Notes: generated by a model not told the origin, from the sequence alone. DNA of 64,000 nucleotides from an uncultured Flavobacteriaceae bacterium (GCA_964595625.1 CAZQQU010000003.1:40327-104326), one strand, 5' to 3'. Shown: positions 9,270-27,226, counted from the stretch's first letter. Translations and numbers: made by a program.

Positions 9270-9373
9270 GTGCTTGCCATTTTTCTCTTTTCACTTCTTT
9301 GTGTAACAAAAGTAACTGTGTGTGTTTTTTTGAATACAGAATTTTGCAGTCATAAAACCTAAATTATTTTCTC

Positions 9374-9835: not shown

Positions 9836-9854
9836 AATTATCAAATTACAGATT

Positions 9855-10944: not shown

Positions 10945-11022
10945 AAACGGCTTTTGCCCAGTATTTCCGCCTATTTTTCATCAAAATTTCGTATCTTTAT
11001 GGGAGAAACAAATTTTACTTGA

Positions 11023-11655
11023 ATGACCGAATTAATAAGGGGATTTTTTGGGCAACTATTTGAAAAAGAACTTATTTCAGAAATCGAACAAGTAGCCGAA
11101 ATTCGTGTCTTTGAAGAAGGGGAAATACTGATTGATATCGGGCAATACATCCGATCTATGCCCCTACTCCTTGATGGTGCCGTAAAAATCATGCGTGAAG
11201 ACCCTGACGAAGGTGAATTATTACTTTATTTTCTCGAAAAAGGCGATACCTGCGCTATGACTTTGGCATGCTGTATGGGTGATAAGCAAAGCGAGATACG
11301 TGCCATTGCCGAAAACCCAAGTACGGTGGCGATGATACCGGTGGAAAAAATGGAAGCCTGGCTCGGCAAATTCAAAAGTTGGAGATCTTTTGTTTTTAAC
11401 AGCTACAACAACCGTTTAGCTGAAATGCTGAGAGCCATTGATAATCTGGCTTTTTTGAAAATGGACGAACGGTTATTGAAATACTTGCAAGAAAACGCAA
11501 AAATCAATCAATCTAAAACCATTTACAAGACGCACCAAGAAATCGCCTACGAACTCAACACGTCGAGGGTGGTGGTTTCAAGATTGTTGAAAGCATTTGA
11601 AAATGAAGGAAAAATAAAATTAAACAGAAATAACATCGATTTATTAAAAACATAA
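11023..11655 (+). CDS. Crp/FNR family transcriptional regulator
   Basis: A cNMP-binding beta-roll plus a C-terminal HTH (TSRVVVSRLLKAFENEGKI). An unusual Cys triplet sits in the roll (GDTCAMTLACCMG). Confidence 0.8.
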   Translation: MTELIRGFFGQLFEKELISEIEQVAEIRVFEEGEILIDIGQYIRSMPLLLDGAVKIMREDPDEGELLLYFLEKGDTCAMTLACCMGDKQSEIRAIAENPSTVAMIPVEKMEAWLGKFKSWRSFVFNSYNNRLAEMLRAIDNLAFLKMDERLLKYLQENAKINQSKTIYKTHQEIAYELNTSRVVVSRLLKAFENEGKIKLNRNNIDLLKT

Positions 11656-11671
11656 ATTATGAAAAATTTAA

Positions 11672-11905
11672 TTGAAGTTGAAAGAAGGATGTATCAACAC
11701 CATTAGAAAAGCTCTCGAAAAAATAGACGGTCTTACCCAACTGTCTATTGACAAAGAAACTGAGGTGATTTCGTATGAAGGCAATCCCCCCAGAGAACAA
11801 GTTATTGCAATTTTGTCAAAGTTAGGTTACCCCGAAAAAGGGCATAATAGCTTTACCAAAAAGGCCAAATCGTACGTGAGCTGTGCCATCGGAAGGATGG
11901 GGTAG
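11672..11905 (+). CDS. Heavy-metal-associated (HMA)-like small protein with a disrupted N-terminal CxxC motif; possible frameshift
   Basis: The ferredoxin-like HMA body and C-terminal AKSYVSCAIGRMG are retained. The only in-frame start is a TTG. An ATG at 11659 opens MKNLIEVE in the -1 frame and stops after 15 codons. Confidence 0.45.
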   Translation: MKLKEGCINTIRKALEKIDGLTQLSIDKETEVISYEGNPPREQVIAILSKLGYPEKGHNSFTKKAKSYVSCAIGRMG

Positions 11906-11928
11906 TATTAATTTAAATCTAAACCGCT

Positions 11929-12648
11929 TTGAAACAGTTAGTTGTAATTTTAGTGTTGATTTTTACTTTTGGGGCTTGTGCCAAAAAAGGAGAATCCCAA
12001 ATACCCGACAAGCAAAGAGTATCGGCTACCGAATTTCTTGAAATCATTCAACAAACCCCTGAAGGGGTGATTGTTGACGTTCGTACTCCCAAAGAATTCA
12101 GTGAGGGACATCTTGAAAATGCCTTGAATATCGACTGGAACAGCGACGACTTTGATACGCATTTGGCTACTTTAGATAAAAACACTCCTGTATTTGTTTA
12201 TTGTCTCAGCGGCGGAAGAAGTTCGGCTGCCGCAGAAACAATGCGCGCGGAAGGTTTTACTAAGGTTGTAGAACTTGAAAACGGAATTATGGGTTGGCGT
12301 GCCAAAAACCTCCCCGAAAAAATCCTTGCCCAAACTTCAAAAGGCATGACGCTTGAGGAGTATCACTCACTTTTAGAAAACGAAAAACCGGTCTTGGTAA
12401 GTTTTTATGCCGACTGGTGTGCTCCGTGCAAAAAAATGAAGCCTTATCTTGACCAAATGGAAACGGATATGCAAGACTCTATCCGACTGGTACGTATAGA
12501 CGCCGATGCCCATAAACTGTTGACCAAAGAATTACTCGTTAAAACTTTGCCGGTACTGAAATTGTATAAAAACCATTCGGAAGTGTGGCAGCATACCGGC
12601 TATATTTCGGAGGAAGATTTACTACAACAATTACAACCGCATCTCTAA
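11929..12648 (+). CDS. Lipoprotein fusing a rhodanese domain to a thioredoxin domain
   Basis: TTG start and lipobox TFGAC. Rhodanese loop CLSGGRS and thioredoxin WCAPC active site. Confidence 0.75.
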   Translation: MKQLVVILVLIFTFGACAKKGESQIPDKQRVSATEFLEIIQQTPEGVIVDVRTPKEFSEGHLENALNIDWNSDDFDTHLATLDKNTPVFVYCLSGGRSSAAAETMRAEGFTKVVELENGIMGWRAKNLPEKILAQTSKGMTLEEYHSLLENEKPVLVSFYADWCAPCKKMKPYLDQMETDMQDSIRLVRIDADAHKLLTKELLVKTLPVLKLYKNHSEVWQHTGYISEEDLLQQLQPHL

Positions 12649-12732
12649 TAAATTCCACACTTTTTTTGTTGTTTCAGAAAATGAGTGGTAAAAGATTTCT
12701 ATTTAGGATAAAAAGGTATTAAATTATTTTTT

Positions 12733-12740
12733 TACCTTTG
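12733..12740 (+). promoter_or_regulatory. Bacteroidota -7 promoter element TACCTTTG for the nadA operon
   Basis: It matches TAnnTTTG and lies about 75 nt upstream of the nadA ATG. Confidence 0.4.
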
Positions 12741-12814
12741 TTCTTCCAACTTTCTTATTCGTTAAAATAGGATAAAAAAAAGGAAGGTGGAGTGACTTCT
12801 GACCAAATTATTAA

Positions 12815-13780
12815 ATGGTTTTTACAGAAGAAATCTATAGGAAAATGGACAGCAAAGTTTATTTTGCGAACGAAATAGCTCGCTTGAAAAAAGAAAAAAA
12901 TGCGGTATTACTGGCGCATTATTATCAGGAAGAAAGCATTCAGGATATAGCTGATTTTGTAGGAGACAGTCTCGAATTAGCCAAAAAAGCCGCACAGACA
13001 GATGCCGATATTATTGTTTTTGCTGGGGTGTATTTTATGGCTGAAACCGCCAAAATTCTCAATCCCGATAAAAAAGTTCTCCTCCCTGACCTGCAGGCCG
13101 GATGCTCCTTAGCCGATGGCTGCAACCCGGGGGATTTTGCTGCATTTAAGCAAAAATATCCCGGACACAAAGTGGTGACTTATATCAATACGAAGGCAGA
13201 AATAAAAGCCCTCAGCGATTACACCTGTACCTCTTCCAACGCCTTGAAGGTAATCGCCTCCATCCCCGAAGACCAACCTATAATTTTTGCTCCGGATAAA
13301 AATTTGGGGAAATACCTCAGTCAAAAAACCGGTCGAAATATGGTGTTGTGGGACGGCTCATGTATCGTTCACGAAGCTTTTTCGATAGAAAAATTAATTA
13401 CGCTGATTCGCCAATACCCAGAAGCAAAAATTGTTGCTCATCCCGAATCAGAGGAACCGATTTTAAAATTGGCGCATTTCATTAGTTCGACTTCCCAAAT
13501 GATACAGTACATACTTCAAAGTGATGCAACAACTTTTGTCGTTGCTACCGAAGCAGGGATTTTACACCAACTCCGACTTAAAACTCCGGGTAAAACGCTT
13601 ATTCCGGCACCGTCTGTTGAAGATAACACTTGTAGTTGCAGTGAATGTGCCTTTATGAAAGTGAATTCACTCCAAAAAGTATATCTCTGCCTGAGAGACG
13701 AGACCCCTGAAATCCAAATCAGTGGTTCCTTGGCTGCTGCTGCCTTAAAACCCATTGAAAAAATGTTGCAAATCTCGTAA
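12815..13780 (+). CDS. nadA: Quinolinate synthase NadA
   Basis: Motifs [15 protein letters not shown], the [11 protein letters not shown] region and the HPE motif, with conserved Cys residues. Confidence 0.9.
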
Positions 13781-13783
13781 CAC

Positions 13784-15244
13784 ATGAAAACAGATGTATT
13801 AGTCATAGGTTCAGGGATTGCCGGCTTGTCTTTTGCCATCAAAATGGCCGAGCGAAGACCCGACATGCATATCAGTATATTTACTAAGGCAGATGCTTTT
13901 GAAACCAATACCAAATACGCTCAAGGAGGAATTGCCGCGGTGATGAACAACGATGTGTACAATGTCGAATCGCATGTACACGACACCCTCATCGCCGGGA
14001 AAGGACTTTGCGACAGCAAAACCGTGAGAATGGTGGTAGAAAAAGCTCCTGAACGATTAAACGAACTCATTCAATGGGGAACAGATTTTGACAAAACTCC
14101 TGACGGGAATTGGCATTACGGATTAGAAGGCGGACATAGCACCGCCCGAATTTTGCATCACAAAGACCAAACCGGAAAAGTGCTGGAAAAAACACTTTTG
14201 AAACGATTAAAATCTCATAAAAATATTGGGCTGCACACGGAATATTTTGCCCTCGATCTCATAGTGGAAAATAACCAGTGTTTTGGAGCATACTTTTTTG
14301 ATAGAAACCAAAAACAAGACATCCCGGTTTTTGCCAAAGCCACCTACCTCTCTACCGGAGGAAGCGGACAAGTTTTTGAAAAAACCACCAATCCCGAAAT
14401 TGCCACGGGAGACGGCGTTGCCATGGCCTACCGCGCCGGTGCGAAAATTAGTCACATGGGGTATTATCAATTTCATCCCACGGCCTTGGCAACCTCACAA
14501 AATTCAGCCGCATTTTTAATCTCAGAAGCTGTTAGGGGCGCCGGTGCCTACCTGATAAACTCTCAGGGGCACCGGTTTATTTTTGATTATGATGGACTCG
14601 GCGAACTGGCTACTCGAGACGACGTTTGTCACGCTATTTTTAGTGAAATGCAAAAAACCAATTCCTCGTATGTATTCTTAGACGCCAGACATTTGGATAA
14701 AAAAACTTTCAAAAATCACTTCCCTCACATTATAAAAAATTGCCGCTTACACGGTTTCGATATCTTAAATGAACCCGTTCCGGTAGCTCCGGCGGCTCAC
14801 TACCAATGCGGGGGAATAGCCGTTAACAATAAATCCGAAACATCGGTAAAAAACTTGTACGTCAACGGCGAATGTGCTTACACCGGACTACACGGTGCCA
14901 ATCGATTGGCGTCAAACTCGCTTTTGGAGGCCGTGGTTTTTGCCCACGAAGCAGCTTGCAAAGTAGGGAAAAAATTGGATGCTCCACACCGCTACCCAAA
15001 CTCGATAACTTCGGTAATCATAACCGAAGAGAAATCAGATTCAGAGACTATTTCGGCACAAAAAAAACAACTTCGAAAGTGGATGTACGATTTTTATTTA
15101 CAAAAAATATTAGGTAAAGATACTTCAGCGATTCGGGATAAAATTGATGAAATGGCTCGTCAAACTGACCCGAAACCGCAGTCGGTTGAAGCTTGCGAAT
15201 TGGCAAATCTGCTTTGTGTAGCCCAACTCATAATTCGGCAGTAA
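13784..15244 (+). CDS. nadB: L-aspartate oxidase NadB
   Basis: N-terminal FAD fold VLVIGSGIAGLS, YAQGGIAA, and the C-terminal GLHGANRLASNSLLE motif. Confidence 0.9.
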   Translation: MKTDVLVIGSGIAGLSFAIKMAERRPDMHISIFTKADAFETNTKYAQGGIAAVMNNDVYNVESHVHDTLIAGKGLCDSKTVRMVVEKAPERLNELIQWGTDFDKTPDGNWHYGLEGGHSTARILHHKDQTGKVLEKTLLKRLKSHKNIGLHTEYFALDLIVENNQCFGAYFFDRNQKQDIPVFAKATYLSTGGSGQVFEKTTNPEIATGDGVAMAYRAGAKISHMGYYQFHPTALATSQNSAAFLISEAVRGAGAYLINSQGHRFIFDYDGLGELATRDDVCHAIFSEMQKTNSSYVFLDARHLDKKTFKNHFPHIIKNCRLHGFDILNEPVPVAPAAHYQCGGIAVNNKSETSVKNLYVNGECAYTGLHGANRLASNSLLEAVVFAHEAACKVGKKLDAPHRYPNSITSVIITEEKSDSETISAQKKQLRKWMYDFYLQKILGKDTSAIRDKIDEMARQTDPKPQSVEACELANLLCVAQLIIRQ

Positions 15245-15247
15245 AGA

Positions 15248-15676
15248 ATGAAGTCTGTACATTACATAGCCATCACTTATATAATTTTAAGCATTTCATA
15301 TTTAGTGCTTTCCTTTGTAATTTATACGGATACAGACACTTATCAGGTAAAATCTCAGGAGATTGATGTTTCGACCGCTTCTCAAGGGCGTTTGGTTTGG
15401 CAAAAATACAACTGCCAGGCTTGTCATCAGTTGTACGGTTTGGGAGGTTTTTTAGGCCCTGATCTGACGAATGTTTCCCAAAAAGGATTTTTTTACGTAG
15501 ATGCTTTTTTAAAAACCGGCGTAAACTCTATGCCCGAATTTTCACTCTCTGAAGAAGAAACCCACCAATTGTTCGAATTTCTCAAATCGGTTGACAACAC
15601 CGGAAACGCCATCCCGGCTACTTACAACACTTTTTGGAACGGAATGATACAACCCGAGCATGAAACCCAACCGTAA
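15248..15676 (+). CDS. Membrane-anchored mono-haem cytochrome c (small subunit of the HCO-like complex)
   Basis: N-terminal TM helix, CQACH haem site and a downstream SMPEF methionine. It starts 3 nt after the nadB stop and overlaps the next gene by 17 nt. Confidence 0.75.
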   Translation: MKSVHYIAITYIILSISYLVLSFVIYTDTDTYQVKSQEIDVSTASQGRLVWQKYNCQACHQLYGLGGFLGPDLTNVSQKGFFYVDAFLKTGVNSMPEFSLSEEETHQLFEFLKSVDNTGNAIPATYNTFWNGMIQPEHETQP

Positions 15677-16985
15677 TTCCATAGGAGCTTTGTTTTTAAA
15701 AACCGCATTGATATTGTTGGTTTTAGGATTGATATTTGGTGCATTGGCCTCTGTCATTTACATAGTGCCGGAATTTTTAAAAAACAATTTTGGTCTTACC
15801 GCTTTAAGACCTTTACATGTTTCATCGGTGGTGTTTTGGATTTTATTGGCTGCTACAGGAAGTATTTATCTGGCGCTCGAAAATATCACTCCAAAACAGT
15901 CGTCAACCCTACTGCAAAAACTCCATTTGATTTTTTGGTGGATGGCGTTAGCGGGAATATTTTATTCCTATTTTACAAAAAACTTCGGGGGGCGCGAATA
16001 TTGGGAATATCCTTCGGTCTATGCCCTTCTCGTCGGAATTGCTTGGGTTTTATTTTTGATTTTATTTATTCAAAAAGTTCGTACACTGCGGCCATGGCCC
16101 GTCTATATCTGGATGTGGATGACCGGAATTGTCTATTTTTTATTCATTTTTATAGAAAATTATTTGTGGGTAATCCCTTGGTTTAGAGAGATTTTTGTAA
16201 AAGACATGGTCATTCAATGGAAAGCAGCCGGAAGTATTGTAGGGGCTTATAATATGTTGGTGTATGGAGTCGCATTTTACCTGATGGAACGCATCAGTAA
16301 ACAGTCGGTTCCCAGTTATAACAAATGGGCTTTTGCGCTGTTTTTTCTGAGTTTTTTCAATATGCTTTTCAACTGGGGACACCATCTCTATCTCGTTCCG
16401 GCGAAGCCGTATATACATTACATCGGTTATGCGGTGAGTATGACCGAGTGGGTTTTCTTTATAAAAATTCTTTGGAACTGGCACAAACAAGTCACCGAAG
16501 CCGAAACTTATTACCATTATTTCCCGTACCGGTTTTTGTTGGCATCCAACTTCTGGTTGTTTTTTAACCTCACCTTGGCTTTGTTTATGTCGATACCGGC
16601 CATAAACCTCTATATGCACGGCACGCACTTTATCACGGCGCATGCCATGGGTACTACCATCGGAATTAACACTATGATATTGTTGGCTGCTGCTTTTGAA
16701 CAATTGTTGCCTAAGCAAAGCTCTTTCTCAAAGGGAAGTAAAAGGACTTTCTGGGTAATCCAACTAAGTTTGTTGTTGTTCTTGGTGTTTTTACTGTTGA
16801 TGGGAATTCACAAAAGCATTTGGTTTTTTCAAGACCCACAACCTCCCTTTTCCGAAATGATGGAAAAAATGAAATTTTGGTCTGCCGGATTTATGATTTC
16901 GGGTATCACTTTGGCTATATCAGTAGTATTAATGGTAACTTTGTTTTTTAGGAAAAAGTTTGCTCAGGGCAATCCAAACCATTAA
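15660..16985 (+). CDS. Divergent heme-copper oxidase superfamily subunit I-like protein (cbb3/NOR-related) with non-canonical active-site ligands
   Basis: It aligns without gaps to the CcoN in this window over helices VI-VII and with a single one-residue gap as far as helix X. LRPLH (H53), WGHH (H241/H242) and TAH (H328) are retained. The helix-VI CuB His aligns to G191, the cross-link Tyr to M235 and the second helix-X His to M330. Confidence 0.75.
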   Translation: MKPNRNSIGALFLKTALILLVLGLIFGALASVIYIVPEFLKNNFGLTALRPLHVSSVVFWILLAATGSIYLALENITPKQSSTLLQKLHLIFWWMALAGIFYSYFTKNFGGREYWEYPSVYALLVGIAWVLFLILFIQKVRTLRPWPVYIWMWMTGIVYFLFIFIENYLWVIPWFREIFVKDMVIQWKAAGSIVGAYNMLVYGVAFYLMERISKQSVPSYNKWAFALFFLSFFNMLFNWGHHLYLVPAKPYIHYIGYAVSMTEWVFFIKILWNWHKQVTEAETYYHYFPYRFLLASNFWLFFNLTLALFMSIPAINLYMHGTHFITAHAMGTTIGINTMILLAAAFEQLLPKQSSFSKGSKRTFWVIQLSLLLFLVFLLLMGIHKSIWFFQDPQPPFSEMMEKMKFWSAGFMISGITLAISVVLMVTLFFRKKFAQGNPNH

Positions 16986-16991
16986 TCCATC

Positions 16992-18206
16992 ATGCTAAAA
17001 ACAGCTGCTTTAACAGCATTGGGATATTTAGCCATAGCGTCCCTACTGGGATTGGCGCTTCGTTATACTGCCCTAGCAGAGCTACCGATAACGTATCGGT
17101 ATTTTGTACATGGCCACTCGCATATTGCTATGCTGGGATGGATTTATATTGCTCTGACGACTCTTATTTACAAGGCCTATCTTCACACTGAGTCCGTACC
17201 TTTTTCTTATAAAATACTTTTTGTTTGTACCCAAATTACCCTATTAGGTATGTTGATTGCCTTTCCGCTGCAGGGATATGCTTTATTTTCCATACTCTTT
17301 TCGAGTCTGTTTTTAATCGCCAGCTACGGATTTATATACTTTTTTTTCAAAAATGTTTACCCGGAAAATAAAAACACTTTCTCTTATCATTTGATCAAAC
17401 AGGCCTTGGGGTTTTTGGGCTTGTCAAGTATAGGCGCTTGGTCTTTGGGCATTATCATGACTACCGCCGGAAATACTTCGATTTATTACAAATTGGCGAT
17501 TTATTTCTTTTTACATTTTCAATACAACGGATGGATGCTTCTCGCTGTTTTGGGCTTGTTTTTTTATGTTTTGGAGAAAAAAAATATTGTTTTTTCTAAA
17601 GAAAAAACCCTCTCTTTAAGACGTTGGATAGCCGGCAGTGTGTATCTGACTTATTTGTTGTCGGCTTTGTTTGCCCAGCCCCATGAAAGTATTTATGCTT
17701 TAGCCGGCATAGGCGTTCTTTTACAACTCATGGCTTTTGCCAAAGTTTGGAAAATGGTTCGGTCAAAACACAACGCTATTCAACAAGTTTTTCCTCAAAA
17801 AATATTTTGGATACTCGCTTTATCGGGACTATTGTGGGTGGTAAAACTACTGTTGCAAACACTTTCTGTCTTCCCGTATTTTGCCGATTTGGCTTATCAA
17901 TTCCCCGATTTTATCATCGGATATCTGCACTGGGTTTTTCTTGGAATTATCAGTTTGGCTCTCTTCGGGTTAACAACATCTTTTGATTTATTGACTCTAT
18001 CACAAAAACTTATGTCTTTGTTTTTAATAGGTTTTGCGGCTACAGAATTATTGATATTCTACCGTGCCATGGCTCAATGGCTGGATATGCCTTTGCCATC
18101 ACAATTTCTATTCGCCTTATTTTTAGCAAGTTTGGTATTATTTATCGGAATTGCGGGCTTGCTTTTGAAGAATATTTCGATTTTATTTTTTGATAAAACA
18201 AAATAA
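16992..18206 (+). CDS. Polytopic (about 12 TM) membrane protein of unknown function, co-operonic with the HCO-like gene
   Basis: 404 aa and hydrophobic throughout. It has three His-containing helix motifs (HGHSHIAMLGW, HFQYNGW, YLHWVFLG). Any NnrS-like resemblance is only impressionistic. Confidence 0.5.
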   Translation: MLKTAALTALGYLAIASLLGLALRYTALAELPITYRYFVHGHSHIAMLGWIYIALTTLIYKAYLHTESVPFSYKILFVCTQITLLGMLIAFPLQGYALFSILFSSLFLIASYGFIYFFFKNVYPENKNTFSYHLIKQALGFLGLSSIGAWSLGIIMTTAGNTSIYYKLAIYFFLHFQYNGWMLLAVLGLFFYVLEKKNIVFSKEKTLSLRRWIAGSVYLTYLLSALFAQPHESIYALAGIGVLLQLMAFAKVWKMVRSKHNAIQQVFPQKIFWILALSGLLWVVKLLLQTLSVFPYFADLAYQFPDFIIGYLHWVFLGIISLALFGLTTSFDLLTLSQKLMSLFLIGFAATELLIFYRAMAQWLDMPLPSQFLFALFLASLVLFIGIAGLLLKNISILFFDKTK

Positions 18207-18218
18207 TCTCAACTCACT

Positions 18219-18602
18219 TTACAAGCGACTTTCATAAATGCTGAGGTATAGGTGTGTAGCCATTTTTCGGGCATTGTTTTTGGCGCGTTCGGCCAATTCA
18301 CCTTCAAACAACTCATCTATGGTTTGAATCCACAAATTCAGCCATTCGCCAAAATGCTCCTGCTGAATGATATTAGAAAAATGCGAATCGACCTGTATGT
18401 GCGCCAAACGCGGATTTCCTTTGTACTTGGCTTTAAAAAACAAATTGCTCTCCCAAAAATCTGTCAGTTTTTCTAAATGTTCGTCCCAATTGTGAATGAT
18501 TTCGTTAAAAAACCGACCAATAAATTCGCTCGTTCTTACTTTTCCGTAAAAAGTAGAAACCAGTAAATACACATCGTCCCGCGATTCAATTTGTTTTTTC
18601 AT
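18219..18602 (-). CDS. Truncated haemoglobin, group III-like (Ctb-like)
   Basis: 127 aa. The pattern FYGKVR...FF...W.EH..KL.DFW...Y.GNP...H...F..WL.LW matches my memory of C. jejuni Ctb-type globins. Confidence 0.7.
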   Translation of the reverse strand: MKKQIESRDDVYLLVSTFYGKVRTSEFIGRFFNEIIHNWDEHLEKLTDFWESNLFFKAKYKGNPRLAHIQVDSHFSNIIQQEHFGEWLNLWIQTIDELFEGELAERAKNNARKMATHLYLSIYESRL

Positions 18603-18883
18603 ACTATTAAATGAAAAATAATGATTCCTAAACTCACAAAAATACTAAGCAATAACGAGTTAAACACAAATCCGGGTTTCATTTGTGCCAACACCGAAGC
18701 GTTGTACCACATAGCTACCGAAACCACCATCACCAATTGAATAAGTTCGGAAATTCCCGTGCCGCTTTGTAAAACAAACATAGCGGCAATAGAACCAATA
18801 CAGCTCGAGGCAATAATACCCAAGGTAATGTTCAGATAAAACATTTGCTGAAAATCGGAGCGTAATTTTTTATACAATCTCAT
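18599..18883 (-). CDS. Small three-TM membrane protein, overlapping the globin start (ATGA)
   Basis: 94 aa and hydrophobic, with a 4-nt overlap with the downstream globin gene. Confidence 0.5.
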   Translation of the reverse strand: MRLYKKLRSDFQQMFYLNITLGIIASSCIGSIAAMFVLQSGTGISELIQLVMVVSVAMWYNASVLAQMKPGFVFNSLLLSIFVSLGIIIFHLIV

Positions 18884-19064
18884 CTGTTTTATATTTTAAT
18901 TATTATCAAAGATTTCTAGCCAAAACACATTTTCAGGTGTTTGGACAATATGTTAATCCGGCATTTCATGAAATGATTTTTTCAGTAATAAAATTATTTC
19001 TCCTCAAAAAATTTATTTATGACCTGAATCATAATCCTCTGCAGGGTTATTTGGGATTTAAGAT

Positions 19065-19076
19065 TGACATTTGTCA
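19065..19076 (+). promoter_or_regulatory. FNR/FixK-type box TGACATTTGTCA upstream of ccoI
   Basis: 14-mer TTGACATTTGTCAT. The dyad centre is 36.5 bp from the terminal G of the -7-like element CACTTTTG (19100-19107). Confidence 0.55.
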
Positions 19077-19134
19077 TTGTTTACCCGATTATTCCATTGC
19101 ACTTTTGTACCATAGTATCGGATACTGAAAATAT

Positions 19135-21522
19135 ATGGCAAAGGAGGTATCTTGTTATCACTGCGGAAACAGTTGTAACGAAGGCGAGATCGTTACTGAC
19201 GGAAAGAATTTTTGTTGCAACGGTTGTAAAACCGTTTACGAAATTTTTGCCGCCAGCGACCTTACTTGTTATTACGATTTGCAACAATCTCCGGGGGCTA
19301 TTCCCAAGGAAATAAAAGGGAAATACGATTTTTTAGACAACCCGGATATCGCCTCCAAAATCCTTGAGTTTGACGATGATAAACTGCAAATTGTTTTACT
19401 CTACATACCTCATATTCACTGTAGTTCGTGTATTTGGATTTTAGAAAATCTAAACAAACTCAACCCGGAAATTACCTCCTCGCAAGTAAATTTTCCAAAA
19501 AAAATCGTTCGTATACAGTTTAAAAAACAGGGAGTTTCTCTCAAAGAAGTAGTGCTTTTACTGTGTAGCATCGGCTATGAACCCTATATCAGTTTGGAGA
19601 ATTACGAAGGAAAACCCAGGGTCACCGACCGCAGTTTGCTATACAAACTAGCCACTGCGGGATTTGCCTTTGGAAATATCATGTTTTTATCCTTTCCCGA
19701 ATATTTTGACTTCAACGATCTTTGGCTTGAACAATACAAACATTTGTTCCGTTGGATGATGTTTGCTTTTTCGGTGCCGGTGTTGTTATACTCTGCCTCG
19801 GGTTATTTTGTTTCGGCTTATTTAGGGTTGAAAAGGGGCTTTTTAAACATCGATGTGCCTTTGGCTTTGGGAATACTGGTTTTGTTTGTTCGCAGTGTGG
19901 TAGAAATTTCTTTCGACTGGGGTTCGGGGTTTTTTGACAGTTTTTCGGGGTTGGTATTTTTTATTTTGTTAGGAAAATATTTCCAACAACGCACCTATAA
20001 TTTTCTTTCATTTGAAAGGGATTACAAATCGTATTTCCCCATCGCTGTAACTCGCATTCGCGACGGTATAGAAGAATCGGCGCCGGTGTACAACATTCAA
20101 AAGGGCGATAGATTACTGATTAGAAACGAAGAACTCATCCCGGTGGACGGTATTTTGATTAAAGGAAACGGGAGGGTGGATTACAGTTTTGTCACCGGAG
20201 AATCCGTTCCTGTACGAAAAGAATCAGGTGATAAAATATTTGCCGGAGGCAAACAAATAGCAGGCCTCATAGAGATGGAAAGCTTGAAAGCGGTATCACA
20301 AAGCTACCTTACCCAACTATGGAGCAACGATGTTTTTAACAAAGACAAAGAACACGCATTTGTGGGGTTGACCAACCGAGTGAGCAAATATTTTACCATC
20401 GTCATTCTTATCATAGCTTTTGCTTCGTTGGGAATTTGGACGTATTTAGGTAATTTCCCGGTAGCCATTCAGGCATTTACAGCGGTTTTAATCATTGCCT
20501 GCCCCTGTGCCTTGGCCATGTCAGTGCCGTTTACCATGGGAAATATGCTTCGTATTTTCGGGCGACTCAAATTTTATCTAAAAAACGCTAATGTCATTGA
20601 GAAACTGGCAGCGATTGACACTATCATTTTTGACAAAACCGGAACGATTACCACCGGCACCAAAAGCAATATCAGTTATGATGGTGTGCCGCTCACTCAC
20701 GAAGAAGCTGCGTTGCTCAAATCTACGTTGCGAACCTCAAACCACCCGCTCAGTCGTTCGCTTTACGCTATTTTAAAAGAAAACGACATTCTTACCTTAG
20801 ACGAATACCAAGAGCATGTGGGGCAGGGTTTACAAGCTCAAGCCAACGGAAACAGCATTAAAATAGGTTCGTCTGATTTTGTAAATAAAAAGTCGGCTCC
20901 CTCTGAAAAAGTATACCACGAAACCTCCGTGCATATCAGCACCAACGATACTTACAAAGGAAAATTTGTTTTCAAAAATCAATACCGCGAAAATGTAAAA
21001 GAAACTTTTGAAATTTTGGGTAAAAACTATCATTTGGCCATACTATCGGGAGACAACGAAGGTGAAAAAATATACCTTCGCGAAATTTTACCCCCACAAA
21101 CTGAACTGGCTTTCAACCAAAAACCAGACGACAAATTAAAGCATATTGAACATCTGCAGAATTTCGGTCATCGAGTAATGATGGTAGGAGACGGGCTAAA
21201 CGACGCCGGAGCTTTACAACAAAGCGATGTGGGAATAGCTATTTCGGAGAATGTCAATGTTTTCTCTCCCGCCTGCGACGGAATTTTGGATGCGTCCAAG
21301 TTTAAAGAGCTTCCTCATTACATCCGAGCGTCCAATACTGCCATTAAAATTGTCAAAGCGAGTATTACCATCTCATTTTTATACAATATAGTGGGCCTGT
21401 ACTTTGCGGTTACCGGACAATTAGCCCCGGTAGTAGCTGCCATTATCATGCCCATGAGTTCGATTAGCGTAGTAGCATTTACGACTGTAATGACTAACTT
21501 AACAGGAAGAAAATTGAGATAA
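19135..21522 (+). CDS. ccoI: Copper-translocating P1B-type ATPase for cbb3 assembly (CcoI/FixI)
   Basis: N-terminal CYHCGNSC...CCNGC motif, transmembrane CPC, DKTGTIT phosphorylation site and the GDGLNDAGAL hinge. Confidence 0.9.
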   Translation: MAKEVSCYHCGNSCNEGEIVTDGKNFCCNGCKTVYEIFAASDLTCYYDLQQSPGAIPKEIKGKYDFLDNPDIASKILEFDDDKLQIVLLYIPHIHCSSCIWILENLNKLNPEITSSQVNFPKKIVRIQFKKQGVSLKEVVLLLCSIGYEPYISLENYEGKPRVTDRSLLYKLATAGFAFGNIMFLSFPEYFDFNDLWLEQYKHLFRWMMFAFSVPVLLYSASGYFVSAYLGLKRGFLNIDVPLALGILVLFVRSVVEISFDWGSGFFDSFSGLVFFILLGKYFQQRTYNFLSFERDYKSYFPIAVTRIRDGIEESAPVYNIQKGDRLLIRNEELIPVDGILIKGNGRVDYSFVTGESVPVRKESGDKIFAGGKQIAGLIEMESLKAVSQSYLTQLWSNDVFNKDKEHAFVGLTNRVSKYFTIVILIIAFASLGIWTYLGNFPVAIQAFTAVLIIACPCALAMSVPFTMGNMLRIFGRLKFYLKNANVIEKLAAIDTIIFDKTGTITTGTKSNISYDGVPLTHEEAALLKSTLRTSNHPLSRSLYAILKENDILTLDEYQEHVGQGLQAQANGNSIKIGSSDFVNKKSAPSEKVYHETSVHISTNDTYKGKFVFKNQYRENVKETFEILGKNYHLAILSGDNEGEKIYLREILPPQTELAFNQKPDDKLKHIEHLQNFGHRVMMVGDGLNDAGALQQSDVGIAISENVNVFSPACDGILDASKFKELPHYIRASNTAIKIVKASITISFLYNIVGLYFAVTGQLAPVVAAIIMPMSSISVVAFTTVMTNLTGRKLR

Positions 21523-21563
21523 AAAATTAGGTCGATTTTAGACTGTCTCTAAATAGACAAATA

Positions 21564-21575
21564 TGACTAATGTCA
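21564..21575 (+). promoter_or_regulatory. FNR/FixK-type box TGACTAATGTCA upstream of ccoS-ccoNO
   Basis: 14-mer ATGACTAATGTCAT with perfect arms. The dyad centre is 36.5 bp from the terminal G of TATTTTTG (21599-21606). Confidence 0.55.
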
Positions 21576-21623
21576 TTTTTTGACGTAGCGTCGAAAAGTA
21601 TTTTTGATAGCAAATTCAGTCGC

Positions 21624-21833
21624 ATGAGCGTAATATACTTAACCTTAGCAATAAGTACCTTGGTAGCTATTGTCTTTTTCTTCATTTTTATTTTAAGTGT
21701 GAAAAAAGGACAGTATGACGACACCTATACCCCATCGGTAAGGATGCTTTTTGAAGACGAACTCGTAAAGGACAAAAATAAAATCGATATACAAGAAACC
21801 TCAACTAAAAAGTCCACTAATAAAGAAAACTAA
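21624..21833 (+). CDS. ccoS: cbb3 oxidase maturation protein CcoS
   Basis: A single TM segment followed by KKGQYDD, the CcoS signature. The internal ATG at 21624 is preferred over the ORF-track start. Confidence 0.75.
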   Translation: MSVIYLTLAISTLVAIVFFFIFILSVKKGQYDDTYTPSVRMLFEDELVKDKNKIDIQETSTKKSTNKEN

Positions 21834-21835: not shown

Positions 21836-24040
21836 ATGGAAGTACAGCAGTTTTATTATGATAACAAAATCGTAAAGAAGTTTATTTACGCAACGATACT
21901 CTGGGGCGTCGTGGGAATGGCCGTGGGATTGTTGCTTGCTTTTATGTTTTTATTCCCCAATCTTACCGAAGGTATCTCTTGGCTTAGCTTTGGACGGCTA
22001 AGACCCTTACATACCAATGCGGTGATTTTTGCTTTTGTGGGGAACGCTATTTTTGCAGGGGTCTATTACTCATTACAAAGGCTCTTAAAAACCCGGATGT
22101 ATAGTAACTTTTTGAGTAATTTCAACTTCTGGGGATGGCAACTTATCATTGTTTCGGCAGCACTCACACTACCTTTGGGGTTTACCACTTCAAAAGAATA
22201 TGCTGAACTCGAATGGCCTATCGATATTGCTATTGCATTAGTTTGGGTGGCTTTTGGGGTGAATATGATTGGTACCATCTTACGAAGAAGACAACGGCAT
22301 TTGTACGTGGCTATCTGGTTTTATTTAGCCACTTTTGTGACTGTAGCTGTACTCCATATTTTCAACAGCTTAGCGCTTCCGGTAGATTTCTTAAAAAGTT
22401 ATTCGGTATATGCCGGAGTACAAGACGCATTGGTGCAATGGTGGTACGGACATAATGCCGTGGCATTTTTCTTGACCACACCCTTTTTGGGTTTGATGTA
22501 CTACTATGTGCCCAAAATTGCTGATCGCCCCATATACTCCTACCGCTTGTCCATTGTACACTTTTGGTCATTAATCTTTATCTACATTTGGGCAGGTCCT
22601 CACCACTTGTTATACACTGCTTTACCCACCTGGGCACAAAGCTTGGGGGTAACCTTCTCGATCATGTTGATAGCTCCTTCTTGGGGTGGTATGATCAACG
22701 GACTTTTAACCTTAAGAGGTGCTTGGGACAAAGTACGTACCGATCCCACTCTCAAATTTATGGTGGTAGCTATCACCGGTTACGGTATGGCCACTTTTGA
22801 AGGCCCGATGTTATCGCTTAAAAATGTCAATGCAATTGCCCACTTTACCGACTGGATTATTGCACACGTACACGTAGGTGCCTTGGCTTGGAACGGATTT
22901 TTAACCTTCGGTATGGTCTATTGGTTGGTGCCCAAACTTTTTAAAACCAAATTATACTCCACTGCCTTAGCCAATACCCACTTCTGGTTAGGAACCCTCG
23001 GAATTGTTTTATACGCTCTGCCGATGTACGTAGCCGGCGTGGTTCAGGCTTCTATGTGGAAACAATTCAACCCCGACGGAACTTTGGTTTACGGTAACTT
23101 TATGGAAACCGTTACCGAAATTATCCCGATGTACTGGATGCGTGCCATAGGCGGTAGCTTATACATCTTGGGTATGTTTATATTACTCTACAACATTATC
23201 AAAACCATCAAAAGCGGTAGTGCTGTCACCGACGAGTTGGCTGAAGCCGCTCCTCTCGAAAAAGTTTCTAAAAGACGTGTTTCCGGTGAGGGGTATCACT
23301 CTTGGTTAGAAAGAAGACCGGTACAACTTACCATTTTTGCAACCATTGCCATCTTAATCGGTGGAATTGTGCAAATTGTTCCGACCTTAGTCGTCAAATC
23401 AAACATTCCTACTATCACGAGTGTGCATCCTTATACACCCTTGGAGCTCGAAGGAAGAGACCTCTACATCCGGGAAGGCTGTGTGGGCTGTCACTCACAA
23501 ATGGTTCGGCCTTTTAGGAGTGAAACCGAGCGGTATAATGGCGAGTATGCCAAAGCCGGAGAGTTTGTTTACGACCACCCGTTTTTGTGGGGTAGTAAAC
23601 GTACCGGACCCGACTTACTTCGGGTGGGTGGGAAATACTCCGACAGTTGGCATTTTAACCACTTTTACGACCCGCAGAGTACCTCGACCAACTCTATTAT
23701 GCCAAGCTATAAATGGCTAATTACCAACAAATTAAACAAGTCCAAAACCGAAAATAAAATGCAGATAATGCGTAAGTTGGGCGTGCCTTATTCGGAAGAA
23801 GACATCAACCGAGCACAAGAATGGATGCTTGAACAAGGGTCGCAAATAGAGCAAAACCTTATGGGAGACCCCGAATTTACTCGGGTATATGAAGCCGAAA
23901 AACAGTACAACCTTGAGAATGGTTTGGAATTTATAGAAATGAAGAACCGTGAAGTGGTTGCGTTAATCGCTTACTTACAACGTCTTGGAACCGATATCAA
24001 AATAAAAAATCAAGAGGAAACAACCTCACAAAACCAATAA
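21836..24040 (+). CDS. ccoN: cbb3-type cytochrome c oxidase, fused subunits I and II (CcoN-CcoO)
   Basis: The CcoN part carries LRPLHT, WWYGHNAV, GPHH and AHVHVG. The C-terminal CcoO part carries the CVGCH haem site. This fusion is usual in Bacteroidota. Confidence 0.9.
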   Translation: MEVQQFYYDNKIVKKFIYATILWGVVGMAVGLLLAFMFLFPNLTEGISWLSFGRLRPLHTNAVIFAFVGNAIFAGVYYSLQRLLKTRMYSNFLSNFNFWGWQLIIVSAALTLPLGFTTSKEYAELEWPIDIAIALVWVAFGVNMIGTILRRRQRHLYVAIWFYLATFVTVAVLHIFNSLALPVDFLKSYSVYAGVQDALVQWWYGHNAVAFFLTTPFLGLMYYYVPKIADRPIYSYRLSIVHFWSLIFIYIWAGPHHLLYTALPTWAQSLGVTFSIMLIAPSWGGMINGLLTLRGAWDKVRTDPTLKFMVVAITGYGMATFEGPMLSLKNVNAIAHFTDWIIAHVHVGALAWNGFLTFGMVYWLVPKLFKTKLYSTALANTHFWLGTLGIVLYALPMYVAGVVQASMWKQFNPDGTLVYGNFMETVTEIIPMYWMRAIGGSLYILGMFILLYNIIKTIKSGSAVTDELAEAAPLEKVSKRRVSGEGYHSWLERRPVQLTIFATIAILIGGIVQIVPTLVVKSNIPTITSVHPYTPLELEGRDLYIREGCVGCHSQMVRPFRSETERYNGEYAKAGEFVYDHPFLWGSKRTGPDLLRVGGKYSDSWHFNHFYDPQSTSTNSIMPSYKWLITNKLNKSKTENKMQIMRKLGVPYSEEDINRAQEWMLEQGSQIEQNLMGDPEFTRVYEAEKQYNLENGLEFIEMKNREVVALIAYLQRLGTDIKIKNQEETTSQNQ

Positions 24041-24043: not shown

Positions 24044-24235
24044 ATGTTGAAATTTGTAAAAGGACATATGGAAAGTATTGATGGTGTAGAGGTTTACCCC
24101 ATCATCTCTCTGCTGATTTTCTTTATCTTCTTTGCCCTACTTTTTATTTGGGTATTGACAGCTAAGAAAAGTTATATTGAAAAGGTTAGTAACATTCCTC
24201 TAGAAAACGAGGAAGAAAATACCGGCGCATTATGA
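24044..24235 (+). CDS. Small single-TM cbb3 subunit (CcoQ-like)
   Basis: 63 aa with one TM segment, lying between ccoNO and ccoP and overlapping ccoP by 4 nt. Confidence 0.55.
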   Translation: MLKFVKGHMESIDGVEVYPIISLLIFFIFFALLFIWVLTAKKSYIEKVSNIPLENEEENTGAL

Positions 24236-25191
24236 AAACATTTTGGTCCATTTTTAGAATTGCAGTTATTGCTGTCATCTCCCTGTACTTAATCGAAAAA
24301 TTATCCGGTGTAGCTGAAGGCGAGTGGGCTATTATTCAACACCCGGTATTGATTCTCGTGTGGTTGGGAATTGCCCTGTTCATGACAGCCATTGAAGTGA
24401 GCATAGCTTCTTTGAGAAGATTATTGTTTCACACTTTAAGTGACGAAGCAAAAGTCAAATATTTGGCTGCCGAAGAAATAAGAAATGAGAAATTTACCGG
24501 AAGATTTAAAAAATTGTATCACCGATTGGTGGATTCTAAACCTGTCGAAAAAGAGGGCGAAATTCTTCTAGACCACGATTACGACGGTATCAGGGAATTG
24601 GACAACAACTTACCTCCGTGGTGGTTATACGGTTTTTATATTTCGATACTTTTTGCCATAATTTATATGGTGCGTTTTCACGTATTTGACGGAAAACAAC
24701 AAGATGAAGAATACCAAATGGAAATGGCAAAAGCCGCTCTCGAGATAGAAGAATACAAAAAGAATGCGAAGGATTTAGTCGACGCCAGCACTGTTGTGGT
24801 TCTCACAGATCCGGCGGATTTAAATACCGGAAAATCAGTTTTTGAAACTACTTGTGCGACTTGTCACAGAGCTGACGGAGGTGGTGGTATCGGCCCCAAT
24901 CTTACTGATGATTACTGGATTATGGGCGGGGATATCCGTGATATTTTTACGGTAATTTCAGAAGGTGGTCGCCCGGGTAAAGGGATGATTGCATGGAAAA
25001 ACGACCTCAGCCCGTTGCAAATTGCACAAACCGCCAGTTATATTACCACGCTATATGGAACCAACCCTGCTGACGCCAAAGATCCGGAAGGAGAATTATA
25101 TGTCAAAGATGGGGATTCGGGTGAACAAGCCACTGATACCGAAACCATAGATAGCGCAGAGTCGGAAAGTGTTTCGGAAGTAGAACAATAA
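24232..25191 (+). CDS. ccoP: cbb3-type oxidase cytochrome c subunit CcoP (single CxxCH seen)
   Basis: The N-terminal TM region includes the DHDYDGIRELDNNLPPWW motif. There is one CATCH site and an acidic C-terminal tail. Confidence 0.8.
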   Translation: MKTFWSIFRIAVIAVISLYLIEKLSGVAEGEWAIIQHPVLILVWLGIALFMTAIEVSIASLRRLLFHTLSDEAKVKYLAAEEIRNEKFTGRFKKLYHRLVDSKPVEKEGEILLDHDYDGIRELDNNLPPWWLYGFYISILFAIIYMVRFHVFDGKQQDEEYQMEMAKAALEIEEYKKNAKDLVDASTVVVLTDPADLNTGKSVFETTCATCHRADGGGGIGPNLTDDYWIMGGDIRDIFTVISEGGRPGKGMIAWKNDLSPLQIAQTASYITTLYGTNPADAKDPEGELYVKDGDSGEQATDTETIDSAESESVSEVEQ

Positions 25192-25269: not shown

Positions 25270-26685
25270 ATGGAAAATCAGGAACAGTTTCGGGATTCTA
25301 TCGGAACCATTGATGAGACGGGTAAAAGAAAGTGGATTTTTCCCAAAAAACCTTCGGGGAAATTTTACACCTACCGAAAATATGTGAGTTATTTTTTACT
25401 CTTATTCCTGTTTGCGGCACCTTTTGTAAAAATTAACGGAAACCAGTTTTTGCTTTTTAATGTCATCGAACGTAAATTCAATATTTTCGGATTTCCGTTT
25501 TGGCCGCAGGACTTTTATCTCTTTGTGATTTCCATGGTAATCGGGGTGGTCTTTATCGCCTTGTTTACGGTAGCTTTTGGAAGGATATTTTGTGGATGGA
25601 TTTGTCCGCAAACTATTTTTATGGAAATGGTTTTTCGCCGAATCGAATATGCCATCGAGGGCGACAGAGGAAAACAGATTCGGCTAGACAAAATGCCCTG
25701 GAATACCGAAAAAATTACTAAAAAAGGTCTGAAATGGTTCTTGTTTGCCATTATTTCTTTTTTAATCGCCAATGTATTTTTGGCTTATCTGATTGGTAGC
25801 GATCGGCTTGTGCTCTACATCACCGAAGGCCCCATCAACCACTTAAATACTTTCATCGGGTTGTTGATTTTTACCGCGGTATTCTATTTTGTTTTTGCCT
25901 GGTTTAGAGAACAAGTATGTATCATTGCCTGTCCGTATGGGCGTCTGCAAGGAGTTTTGTTGGATACTAAATCCATAGTGGTAGCTTACGACCACAAACG
26001 AGGCGAAGCTGAAAAAGGGCGAAAAAAATTTCGTAAAAATGAAGACCGAAAAGAATTGGGTTATGGCGATTGTATCGATTGTTTTCAATGTGTCCACGTT
26101 TGTCCTACGGGTATTGATATCCGAAATGGAACCCAACTGGAATGTGTAAACTGTACAGCCTGTATAGACGCTTGTGACAGTATCATGGAATCGGTTAATT
26201 ATCCCAAAGGACTTATCCGGTACGCCAGTGAGGAAAATATTCAAAAGAAAAAAAGATTTGAGTTTACCCTCCGAATGAAAGGCTATACCGCCGTTTTGAT
26301 TATCCTGATAGGAGTACTTATTGGAATGTTATTCTTAAGGAGCGATGTCGAAGCTTTGGTTTTACGACTACCCGGACAATTATACGAATTAAAAGAAAAC
26401 AGCCGAGTAAGTAATGTTTATACCTATAAACTGATTAATAAAACCACGCTGGAGTATCACAATATCGAGTTTAAGTTGTTATCACATAAAGGGGATATTA
26501 ACTTTGTAACTCAAGCCGAAGTGGTGGTTCCGCCTCAGGGATTGGTAGAAGGGACTCTTTTTATTGAGGTTCCTCAAGCCGCTCTCGACGGACATAAAAC
26601 TAAAATGGAAATAGGGGTTTATAGTGACGGAAAATTAATCGAAACAACTCGAACCAACTTTTTAGGACCGAGGAGTTTCAGATAA
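25270..26685 (+). CDS. ccoG: Cytochrome c oxidase accessory protein CcoG (4Fe-4S, membrane)
   Basis: Motifs CGWICPQ, CPYGRLQ, and two ferredoxin-type motifs CIDCFQCVHVCP and CVNCTACIDAC. Confidence 0.85.
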   Translation: MENQEQFRDSIGTIDETGKRKWIFPKKPSGKFYTYRKYVSYFLLLFLFAAPFVKINGNQFLLFNVIERKFNIFGFPFWPQDFYLFVISMVIGVVFIALFTVAFGRIFCGWICPQTIFMEMVFRRIEYAIEGDRGKQIRLDKMPWNTEKITKKGLKWFLFAIISFLIANVFLAYLIGSDRLVLYITEGPINHLNTFIGLLIFTAVFYFVFAWFREQVCIIACPYGRLQGVLLDTKSIVVAYDHKRGEAEKGRKKFRKNEDRKELGYGDCIDCFQCVHVCPTGIDIRNGTQLECVNCTACIDACDSIMESVNYPKGLIRYASEENIQKKKRFEFTLRMKGYTAVLIILIGVLIGMLFLRSDVEALVLRLPGQLYELKENSRVSNVYTYKLINKTTLEYHNIEFKLLSHKGDINFVTQAEVVVPPQGLVEGTLFIEVPQAALDGHKTKMEIGVYSDGKLIETTRTNFLGPRSFR

Positions 26686-26782
26686 GCCCCTCCCTAATCC
26701 TCTCCAAAGGGGAGGGAAAGGGTTGATAAAAATAGATTGTTTAATTATAAAAATCCCCCTTTGGGGGAGAAAGGGGTTTGAA
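26686..26782 (+). repeat. GC-rich hairpin/direct-repeat island between ccoG and fixH (REP-like)
   Basis: CCCTCCC (26688-26694) pairs with GGGAGGG (26710-26716). CCCCCTTTGGGGG lies at 26755-26767. The G-rich unit GGGGAG(G)GAAAGGG(G)TT occurs twice, about 54 nt apart. Confidence 0.4.
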
Positions 26783-27226
26783 ATGAAATTAAACTGGGGA
26801 ACAGGAATCTTAGTGGCAATCATCGGGTTTATTGCCTTTATTATGTATTTTATTATCACTATGACAACCGATAAAAAATACGATTTTGAAATGGTGGTAG
26901 ATGATTATTACAAAAAAGAAATTGGTTTTCAGGAAGAGTTGGATGCACAACAAAACGCTTTAAATCTTTCCGAAAAAATACAAATACAAACCTCAACCGA
27001 AGGTGTTATCTTGATTTTCCCTGAGACGATGACAGAAGTACAAAACGGAACAGTAAATTTTTACCGGGTTTCACAAAAATCACTTGATTTTCAAGAAGAA
27101 ATTCGACTCCAAGACAACCAAATGCACATTCCGGCTTCCCGCCTTCTTCCCGGAAGATGGAACATAACTTTGCAGTGGGAATCGGGGGGTAAAAAATATA
27201 TGGTAAAAGAAAATATCACTTTTTAA
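26783..27226 (+). CDS. FixH family protein
   Basis: An N-terminal TM segment (MKLNWGTGILVAIIGF) plus a periplasmic domain, in the position expected within the cco cluster. The internal ATG at 26783 is preferred. Confidence 0.7.
   Translation: MKLNWGTGILVAIIGFIAFIMYFIITMTTDKKYDFEMVVDDYYKKEIGFQEELDAQQNALNLSEKIQIQTSTEGVILIFPETMTEVQNGTVNFYRVSQKSLDFQEEIRLQDNQMHIPASRLLPGRWNITLQWESGGKKYMVKENITF

Follow-up and report, generated by a model that had tools for sequence, protein, structure and literature searches.

The question raised by this locus is whether a short palindrome found upstream of the cbb3 biogenesis gene ccoI, and again upstream of several genes in its vicinity, is a regulatory site, and which protein might read it. 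The window analyzed here is the whole stretch of 64,000 nucleotides from an uncultured Flavobacteriaceae bacterium (GCA_964595625.1, CAZQQU010000003.1:40327-104326). A first-pass annotation of this window had reported four boxes of the FNR/FixK type, each at the same distance from a -7 promoter element, and a fifth, weaker copy. That the box is a real and conserved regulatory site is hardly in doubt. We consider it likely that the boxes are class II Crp/Fnr sites belonging to a low-oxygen regulon, with a response regulator that combines a receiver and a Crp-type module (in the following the receiver-Crp protein) as the likeliest regulator.

Box sites and -7 elements in the window

All five 14-mers and all four -7 elements described in the first-pass annotation were confirmed in the sequence at their coordinates. 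Its count of four main boxes and one weaker box stands, and a further one at 19019-19032 had been overlooked, which brings the total to six:

19064-19077, plus strand: Box 1, TTGACATTTGTCAT, ccoI promoter, composite matrix score 27.0
19100-19107, plus strand: -7 element of Box 1, CACTTTTG, ahead of the ccoI ATG at 19135
21563-21576, plus strand: Box 2, ATGACTAATGTCAT, promoter of ccoS-ccoNO(Q)P-ccoG-fixH-dsbD2, matrix score 29.1
21599-21606, plus strand: -7 element of Box 2, TATTTTTG
34897-34910, plus strand: Box 3, CTGACATTTGTCAT, usp promoter, matrix score 28.6
34933-34940, plus strand: -7 element of Box 3, TACATTTG, ahead of the usp gene 34961-35767
32522-32535, minus strand: Box 4, ATGATTTTTATCAT (minus-strand reading ATGATAAAAATCAT), YceI operon promoter, matrix score 23.1
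32499-32492, minus strand: -7 element of Box 4, CATCTTTG
3337-3350, plus strand: Box 5, ATGACAATAATCAT, a real but weaker site, matrix score 19.6
19019-19032, minus strand: Box 6, ATGACCTGAATCAT (minus-strand reading ATGATTCAGGTCAT), promoter of the divergent operon 18883-18219, matrix score 18.5
18996-18989, minus strand: -7-like element of Box 6, TAATTTTA

Boxes 1 to 4 are separated by exactly 22 nucleotides from a -7 8-mer ending in TTTG. This gap places the dyad centre 36.5 bp from the terminal G of the -7 element, in agreement with the distance reported earlier for these four promoters. The same 22-nucleotide spacing is found for Box 6, which is located 45 bp upstream of the ccoI box in the opposite orientation. 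At Box 5, TATATTTT occupies the canonical offset (3373-3380) and TATTTTTG lies 2 bp farther (3375-3382). The ATG downstream of it is located at 3386, which implies that the mRNA of the operon 3386-8760 is leaderless or near-leaderless. Transcription from the Box 1 promoter is predicted to start near 19112. The flanks of the six boxes are unrelated to one another.

Within the window, the 12-mer core TGAYNNNNRTCA has eight matches against 3.4 expected. Two of them lie in coding regions and end in TCAA, and the six ending in TCAT (TGAY-N4-RTCAT) are all intergenic, at an intergenic share of 6.7-8.8% of the window (P ~1e-7). The informative pattern requires TCAT, not TCAA; the canonical FNR pattern TTGAYNNNNRTCAA, searched with two mismatches, gave 164 matches against 139 expected and was uninformative. 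In four of the six sites TTTG is found at the same offset (P ~1e-4 with 60 possible offsets taken into account). A composite matrix trained on 80 related loci, with the window excluded, picks exactly these six sites (scores 18.5-29.1). The reverse-strand readings of two of the six palindromes score 16.7 and 14.9, the next candidate reaches 5.3, and the highest score in shuffled windows was 13.7.

Conservation of the box and its spacing in related Flavobacteriaceae

The 80 related loci comprise 1.5 Mb of Flavobacteriaceae DNA from many genera in 21-kb pieces, and were retrieved by means of the receiver-Crp protein, not of the motif. At least one core is present in each of them. Between genes the core was found 458 times against 15 expected, a 30-fold excess, and in coding DNA 77 times against 112 expected. 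In an unbiased count of all 5+5 palindromes, ATGAT-N4-ATCAT ranks first with 43 intergenic and 2 coding occurrences; ATGAC-N4-GTCAT has 23 and 0, and TGATA-N2-TATCA 92 and 4, respectively.

The distance to the promoter is conserved, too. In a strict test, 148 box-gene pairs have a TTTG whose end lies at +36.5 from the dyad, and no other offset exceeds 14; for TAnnTT, 427 occurrences end at +36.5, compared to a median of 12 at other offsets. If the -7 variants TAnnTTTA and TAnnTTAG are admitted, 418 of the 452 testable boxes (92%) have, in one orientation or in both, a -7-like element that ends at exactly this distance. The earlier suggestion that such phasing is hard to obtain by chance is borne out by this count as well as by the offset statistics of the window, and the intergenic enrichment proposed as a check was likewise recovered. 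The median distance from the box centre to the start codon is about 60 nucleotides.

The box is an oriented site with an invariant T on the promoter side. The promoter-proximal base after TCA is T in 97% of the sites, so that the proximal half-site reads ATGAY, and the distal flank is C in 54%, A in 29% and T in 14%. Both half-sites are conserved with symmetric information content. The consensus put forward earlier, (A/T)TGA(C/T)-N4-(G/A)TCAT as an FNR/FixK core, holds for the palindrome and its TGA-N6-TCA core; the half-site is (C/A/T)TGAY and not TTGAT, since the outermost T of FNR boxes is variable here. The promoters of ccoS, ccoI, usp, yceI and the truncated haemoglobin keep the box across genera. 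Two sub-motifs distinguished by regulator were not obtained in this material: neither the base after TCAT (T or A) nor the G+C content of the central four bases sorts cleanly by the neighbouring regulator.

Promoter geometry and mode of action

Class II sites of CRP and FNR are centred at -41.5. In Flavobacterium psychrophilum, for which about 1,900 5′ ends were mapped, the sigma-A box TAnnTTTG is located at -12 to -5 (PMC9723704). If the last base of the -7 box lies at -5, a spacing of 36.5 bp puts the dyad at -41.5, and this is the position predicted for the boxes described here. Together with the rigid spacing, this predicted position agrees with the class II activator geometry proposed in the first-pass annotation. 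In this frame the box extends from -48 to -35, adjoining the poorly conserved -33 element or taking its place. In roughly half of the -7 boxes the last base is A and not G, which makes them suboptimal and matches activator-dependent promoters. The commonest base at the predicted +1 is A.

A dimeric activator of the Crp/Fnr family would bind the box around -41.5 of a Bacteroidota sigma-A promoter with a -7 box and a weak or absent -33 element. From this fixed position it would contact RNA polymerase and turn the gene on, like FNR, FixK and CRP at class II promoters. Judged from sequence comparison, it is very probable that the box serves class II-type activation within a low-oxygen regulon.

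The box could also be the operator of a repressor that blocks RNA polymerase in air, since it abuts or overlaps the -33 region (-48 to -35) and, in some loci, the same box is located between the -33 and -7 elements of the divergent kinase promoter (offsets 22-25), where binding would repress. Yet a spacing that is rigid to one bp in 92% of 452 sites is the signature of contact with RNA polymerase and not of a steric block, the poor -33 elements and the suboptimal half of the -7 boxes look activator-dependent, and a Crp/Fnr-family site at -41.5 is the classic activating arrangement. Repression is therefore improbable.

Still further from the data are an upstream element of an alternative sigma factor, a repeated mobile element, a terminator hairpin and a chance pattern, to which taken together we attach hardly any weight. 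The constant pairing of the box with a promoter element at fixed spacing is what a bipartite sigma motif would show, but the two halves are equally conserved and palindromic, which points to a dimer, and the downstream element is the sigma-A -7 box. A mobile element does not fit the unrelated flanks of the six window sites. A 5-bp A/T-rich stem cannot terminate transcription, and the sites precede genes. The palindrome counts, the enrichment, the offset test and the window statistics exclude chance.

Genes downstream of the box

The genes and operons following the six boxes were assigned as listed below, with support from Pfam where indicated:

19135-21522, plus strand: ccoI P-type ATPase (Pfam)
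21624-21833, plus strand: ccoS (Pfam)
21836-24040, plus strand: fused ccoNO (Pfam)
24232-25191, plus strand: ccoP (Pfam)
25270-26685, plus strand: ccoG (Pfam)
26723-27226, plus strand: fixH (Pfam)
27229-27936, plus strand: DsbD_2-family protein (Pfam)
34961-35767, plus strand: Usp with tandem domains (Pfam)
32458-29924, minus strand: operon of YceI, a 325-amino-acid protein and YceI (Pfam for both YceI)
18599-18883, minus strand: protein of 94 amino acids with three transmembrane segments, Box 6 operon
18219-18602, minus strand: group III truncated haemoglobin (PDB 2ig3, E-value 6e-10, full length), Box 6 operon
3386-8760, plus strand: Box 5 operon, coding for an uncharacterised membrane protein, YtkA-like, TonB-receptor-like and class II ribonucleotide-reductase-like proteins

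Two labels of the first-pass annotation could not be verified. The middle gene of the YceI operon (30594-31571), which had been called a porin, has no family match, and the genes behind the box at 3337, taken for copper-uptake genes, are those of the Box 5 operon given above; the fifth box itself is retained, with its -7 element at the canonical offset and 2 bp farther. The last gene of this operon (6910-8760) encodes a protein of 616 amino acids with weak matches to domains of class II (B12-dependent) ribonucleotide reductases. The mycobacterial DosR regulon also holds a class II reductase, nrdZ.

In the 80 loci, Usp is the most frequent product of box-preceded genes (175 genes in 77 loci), and the S30AE hibernation factor (17 loci), Hsp20 (15), thioredoxin (12), DUF2267 (9), an M50-CBS protease (7), a DnaJ-like protein (7), a PNPOx-like protein (4), DUF302 (4) and YceI (3) follow. 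The ccoI gene is preceded by the box in 12 other loci, with TTTG at +36.5 in 9 of 13 box-gene pairs, and ccoNO in 11 other loci, 8 of which show the full composite. YceI promoters with the box and CAACTTTG were found in three loci (L083, L206, L209). In L081, L083 and L206-L210, the orthologues of the two small Box 6 genes have a promoter of the same type as Box 6 (ATGAYnnrrrTCATA ... TAAyTTTA).

A metagenome scan, for which the strict composite TGATANNTATCAT-N22-TANNTTTG served as the only seed, yielded 120 stretches. Among the downstream genes ccoS was the most frequent (10), and hemN (7), Usp (7) and c-type cytochromes were among the others. Under oxygen limitation F. psychrophilum was reported to induce cbb3 and haem synthesis, and no regulator was named (PMC9723704). 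The low-oxygen regulon linking cbb3 biogenesis, usp and YceI, as first proposed for this window, is supported by the 80 loci and by this independent scan. The six promoters appear to be the local part of a regulon that extends over the Flavobacteriaceae. As judged from the predicted target genes, its content is that of an FNR/FixK regulon, and it possibly responds to nitric oxide as well.

Besides these targets, the gene most often found divergent from the kinase operon described below encodes a member of an uncharacterised family of 134 amino acids that Pfam does not match (44 loci of L001-L080). Its promoter carries the box with the -7 variant TAnnTTTA, and in the window the YceI operon takes its place. 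The pair of membrane protein and truncated haemoglobin, which here is divergent from ccoI, is located directly after a stand-alone Crp/Fnr gene of the type found at 29223 in other genera.

Candidate regulators

The genes that have to be compared as possible readers of the box, together with the kinase gene, are:

33845-34879, plus strand: response regulator with a receiver, a degenerate cyclic nucleotide (cNMP)-binding domain and a Crp-type helix-turn-helix (Pfam)
32602-33840, plus strand: sensor histidine kinase with PAS, HisKA and HATPase domains, the PAS being of the FixL/DosP haem-PAS type
29223-29915, plus strand: stand-alone Crp/Fnr regulator (Pfam), recognition helix VETVIRA
11023: Crp/Fnr protein (Pfam) with a Cys-rich cNMP domain, recognition helix SRVVVSR

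The first-pass annotation had named all three Crp/Fnr proteins as candidates. The receiver fusion at 33845 and the protein at 29223, both with an E--IR helix, are plausible, whereas the protein at 11023 is unlikely to read the box because of its different recognition helix; it is also absent from the 80 loci. Two scattered cysteines are present in the receiver-Crp protein, one in the 29223 protein and three inside the cNMP domain of the 11023 protein. The N-terminal cysteine cluster of the FNR type is found in none of the three, so they are not FNR proper.

The receiver-Crp gene starts 5 nucleotides past the kinase stop codon. Where the gap between the two genes is measurable, as in most of the 80 loci, it is mostly -10 to +20 nucleotides; the kinase gene is present in 78 of these loci and Usp in 76. 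In 75 of the 80 loci the receiver-Crp gene is followed by a box within 150 nucleotides (median 35.5 nucleotides), and in the window the centre of Box 3 is located 24.5 nucleotides past its stop codon. Boxes are densest immediately behind the regulator gene and in front of the kinase gene. Their density amounts to 0.30 sites per kb in the surroundings of the regulator, to about 0.11 near the 29223-type gene and to 0.045 near random composite sites. Five of the 120 metagenome stretches, which were collected without reference to any regulator, carry a receiver-Crp gene, four of them with a site 15-45 nucleotides past its stop codon. Within 10 kb of the regulator, ccoI or ccoNO is found in 15 of the 80 loci.

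The recognition helix GIAxExLIR is invariant in the receiver-Crp family. The features of a two-component receiver are present, with D10, D11, D53 and K105 invariant and S83 nearly invariant. At the cyclic AMP contacts of CRP (R82, S83, Glu72), the family has the stretch PYQETATA without a conserved Arg-Ser, according to a by-eye comparison of the family alignment with the CRP sequence, and the cNMP-like domain is probably structural or allosteric. An AlphaFold model of the regulator (predicted local distance difference test 82, predicted template-modelling score 0.40) was uninformative on the domain arrangement. In a fold search only the Crp/Fnr part of about 200 residues matched, to CAP, GlxR, NtcA and FixK2, and none of the solved structures spans a receiver together with a Crp/Fnr module. 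An NCBIfam equivalog was found neither for the regulator nor for the kinase.

Among solved structures, those matching the kinase PAS domain best are, with few exceptions, the haem oxygen sensors DosP and FixL (E-values 8e-12 to 2.5e-7). According to the alignment, H66 is the proximal histidine and R86 the distal arginine. Of 72 family members, 67 keep the counterpart of DosP His77 and 48 that of Arg97. The domain is best described as a homologue of the FixL-type haem-PAS with putative haem binding and oxygen sensing. The kinase would phosphorylate the regulator on Asp53 once oxygen leaves the haem. With moderate confidence, somewhat above an even chance, the receiver-Crp protein is regarded as the best candidate regulator and as the direct reader of the box.

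The -7 element of the kinase gene (TAACTTTG, 32590-32597) lies 4 nucleotides ahead of the ATG, which implies a leaderless mRNA; 20 of 62 related loci show the same distance. That the kinase operon is autoregulated through the box was considered and rejected as a conserved feature, as a -7 element at the fixed offset is never found in the kinase direction; other offsets are scattered.

Several points weigh against this reading. The assignment of the receiver-Crp protein follows from guilt by association, and the site density in the window is 0.09 per kb, below that of typical regulator neighbourhoods. The box upstream of the kinase faces the divergent gene, and in 0 of 62 kinase-direction pairs is the -7 element found at the fixed offset, so that autoregulation is not supported. 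The distal arginine of the kinase is not universal, and its ligand could be nitric oxide or carbon monoxide. For this organism, the transcription start, the binding and the expression are predictions, and the -41.5 position is carried over from the F. psychrophilum map. To the same side belongs what speaks for the stand-alone protein at 29223, which may be FixK-, Dnr- or NssR-like, may respond to nitric oxide or redox, and could read the boxes instead of or together with the receiver-Crp protein, as Anr and Dnr or FixK paralogues do. Its helix VETVIRA shares with the receiver-Crp protein the E and R positions and an Ile at the position of FNR Ser212. The family is conserved with 65-86% identity across genera, and its genes cluster with cco, YceI, acetyl-CoA hydrolase, thioredoxin, the truncated-haemoglobin pair and hemN, or with RIC/ScdA and nos. 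A box is located 10-60 nucleotides past the stop codon of the 29223-type gene in 8 of 9 loci, and in L205 also 62 nucleotides upstream of its own start. In Campylobacter, the Crp/Fnr protein NssR controls the truncated haemoglobin Ctb via an FNR-like box.

The distribution of the sites tells against the stand-alone protein as the reader. Its gene is absent from all 80 receiver-Crp loci, which are home to the densest site clusters, the density around it is about 0.11 per kb compared to 0.30 around the receiver-Crp gene, and L084 has the 29223-type gene and no site in 20 kb. A true orthologue was found in 0 of the 120 metagenome stretches compared to five with the receiver-Crp gene, in a scan whose seed pattern disfavoured its neighbouring promoter type. 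We therefore hold this alternative to be possible and rather unlikely, and the receiver-Crp protein is preferred. It may also be that both proteins use the same box, in the manner of paralogous FNR-type factors in other systems.

The 29223 open reading frame was called with 230 amino acids and overlaps the acetyl-CoA hydrolase gene; a -7 box (TAACTTTG) inside the overlap is probably its own promoter. The true start is probably near 29319, because members of the family have 198 amino acids. Control of the stand-alone gene by the box was tried as an explanation and dropped: no box was found upstream of the thioredoxin-Crp operon in seven loci or in the window, and only L205 has one.

Other elements of the neighbourhood

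The region 16-18206 of the window is a denitrification and nitric-oxide neighbourhood with nosD (partial), nosF, nosY, a RIC/ScdA-hemerythrin protein (2144-2875) and a CopD-like protein. It further contains an Rrf2 regulator (8793), OsmC, rhodanese proteins, a Tll0287-like protein, nadA, nadB and a norC/norB-like pair (15248-16985), and it is here that the 11023 Crp/Fnr gene is located. Only the operon starting at 3386 has a box in this region. Rfam matches were not found in the window.

In other loci, tandem non-coding arrays of 2-4 units with a period of about 180 nucleotides were observed (L059:8220-8810; L011, L014, L017, L030, L033, L036, L042, L056, L064, L065). They are located 2.6-3.5 kb after the start of the regulator gene and are not present in the window. 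The units end in a hairpin with an 11-bp stem (GAAACAGGAAG-N6-CTTCCTGTTTC), and contain neither an open reading frame of at least 40 amino acids nor an Rfam match. These arrays could be small RNAs or a repeated regulatory element in the hypoxia island.

Significance

Flavobacteriaceae are major degraders of algal and particle-bound marine carbon and live in oxygen gradients of particles, sediments and host tissue. To our knowledge, their oxygen regulation is essentially undescribed. In the full-text literature and the CRP/FNR surveys, with incomplete coverage, no description of the pair of receiver-Crp protein and haem-PAS kinase or of this box in flavobacteria was found. The analysis yields a testable cis-element, a promoter rule (box, 22 nucleotides, -7 box), two candidate regulators and a regulon that can be predicted from any flavobacterial genome. 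If the proposed geometry is true, a Crp/Fnr activator keeps the -41.5 position with the divergent sigma-A polymerase of the Bacteroidota, and this would be one of the early cases on record of class II-type activation at their unusual -33/-7 promoters. It also points to an uncharacterised wiring of a Crp/Fnr protein, in which a phospho-receiver stands in place of a bound ligand or an iron-sulfur cluster.

Comparison with known systems

The class II boxes of FNR, FixK and Anr (E. coli FNR, Bradyrhizobium FixK2; TTGAT-N4-ATCAA at -41.5) share with the flavobacterial box the TGA-N6-TCA core and the predicted centre at -41.5. Downstream genes are shared as well, namely ccoNOQP (fixNOQP), ccoGHIS (fixGHIS), hemN and usp, and the candidate readers keep Glu and Arg at the positions of FNR E209 and R213. 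In contrast, the outer T of TTGAT is A, C or T here, and both candidates carry Ile where FNR has Ser212. The promoters belong to the sigma-A class of the Bacteroidota, with TAnnTTTG at -7, and not to the -10/-35 type, the site is oriented, and the proteins lack the iron-sulfur cysteine cluster.

The Campylobacter system of NssR with Ctb and Cgb, which is relevant mainly to the 29223-type alternative, likewise has a Crp/Fnr regulator associated with a group III truncated haemoglobin and an FNR-like box near -40. It differs in its half-site (TTAAC), in its nitrosative stress signal and in having no kinase.

In content, the predicted regulon resembles the DosS/DosT-DosR regulon of Mycobacterium tuberculosis, which comprises many usp genes, alpha-crystallin/Hsp20, S30AE, an M50-CBS protease, a PNPOx-like protein, a P-type ATPase and a class II ribonucleotide reductase. 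In both cases a haem-sensor kinase and a response regulator would stand over a similar set of genes, a likeness of content only and not of descent. The mycobacterial sensor has a GAF instead of a PAS domain, its regulator is of the NarL/LuxR type, the motif is unrelated, and the cbb3 oxidase is part of the flavobacterial set only.

Finally, the FixL-FixJ-FixK cascade of rhizobia and Caulobacter shares the FixL/DosP-type kinase, the phospho-accepting receiver, the Crp/Fnr reader and the cbb3 output. A separate FixJ that has a LuxR-type output domain and induces fixK finds no counterpart here; the partner regulator itself carries the Crp-type helix-turn-helix. Since receiver and Crp/Fnr module are located on one polypeptide, the FixJ step and the transcriptional relay drop out, and the cascade would be shortened to two proteins. 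We give an even chance to the full scheme, in which the kinase would signal to the receiver-Crp protein, which would bind (C/A)TGAY-N4-RTCAT at -41.5 and directly activate a family-wide hypoxia and persistence regulon (cbb3, hemN, usp, Hsp20, hibernation factor, truncated haemoglobin), DosR-like in content and wired as a short circuit of FixL, FixJ and FixK.

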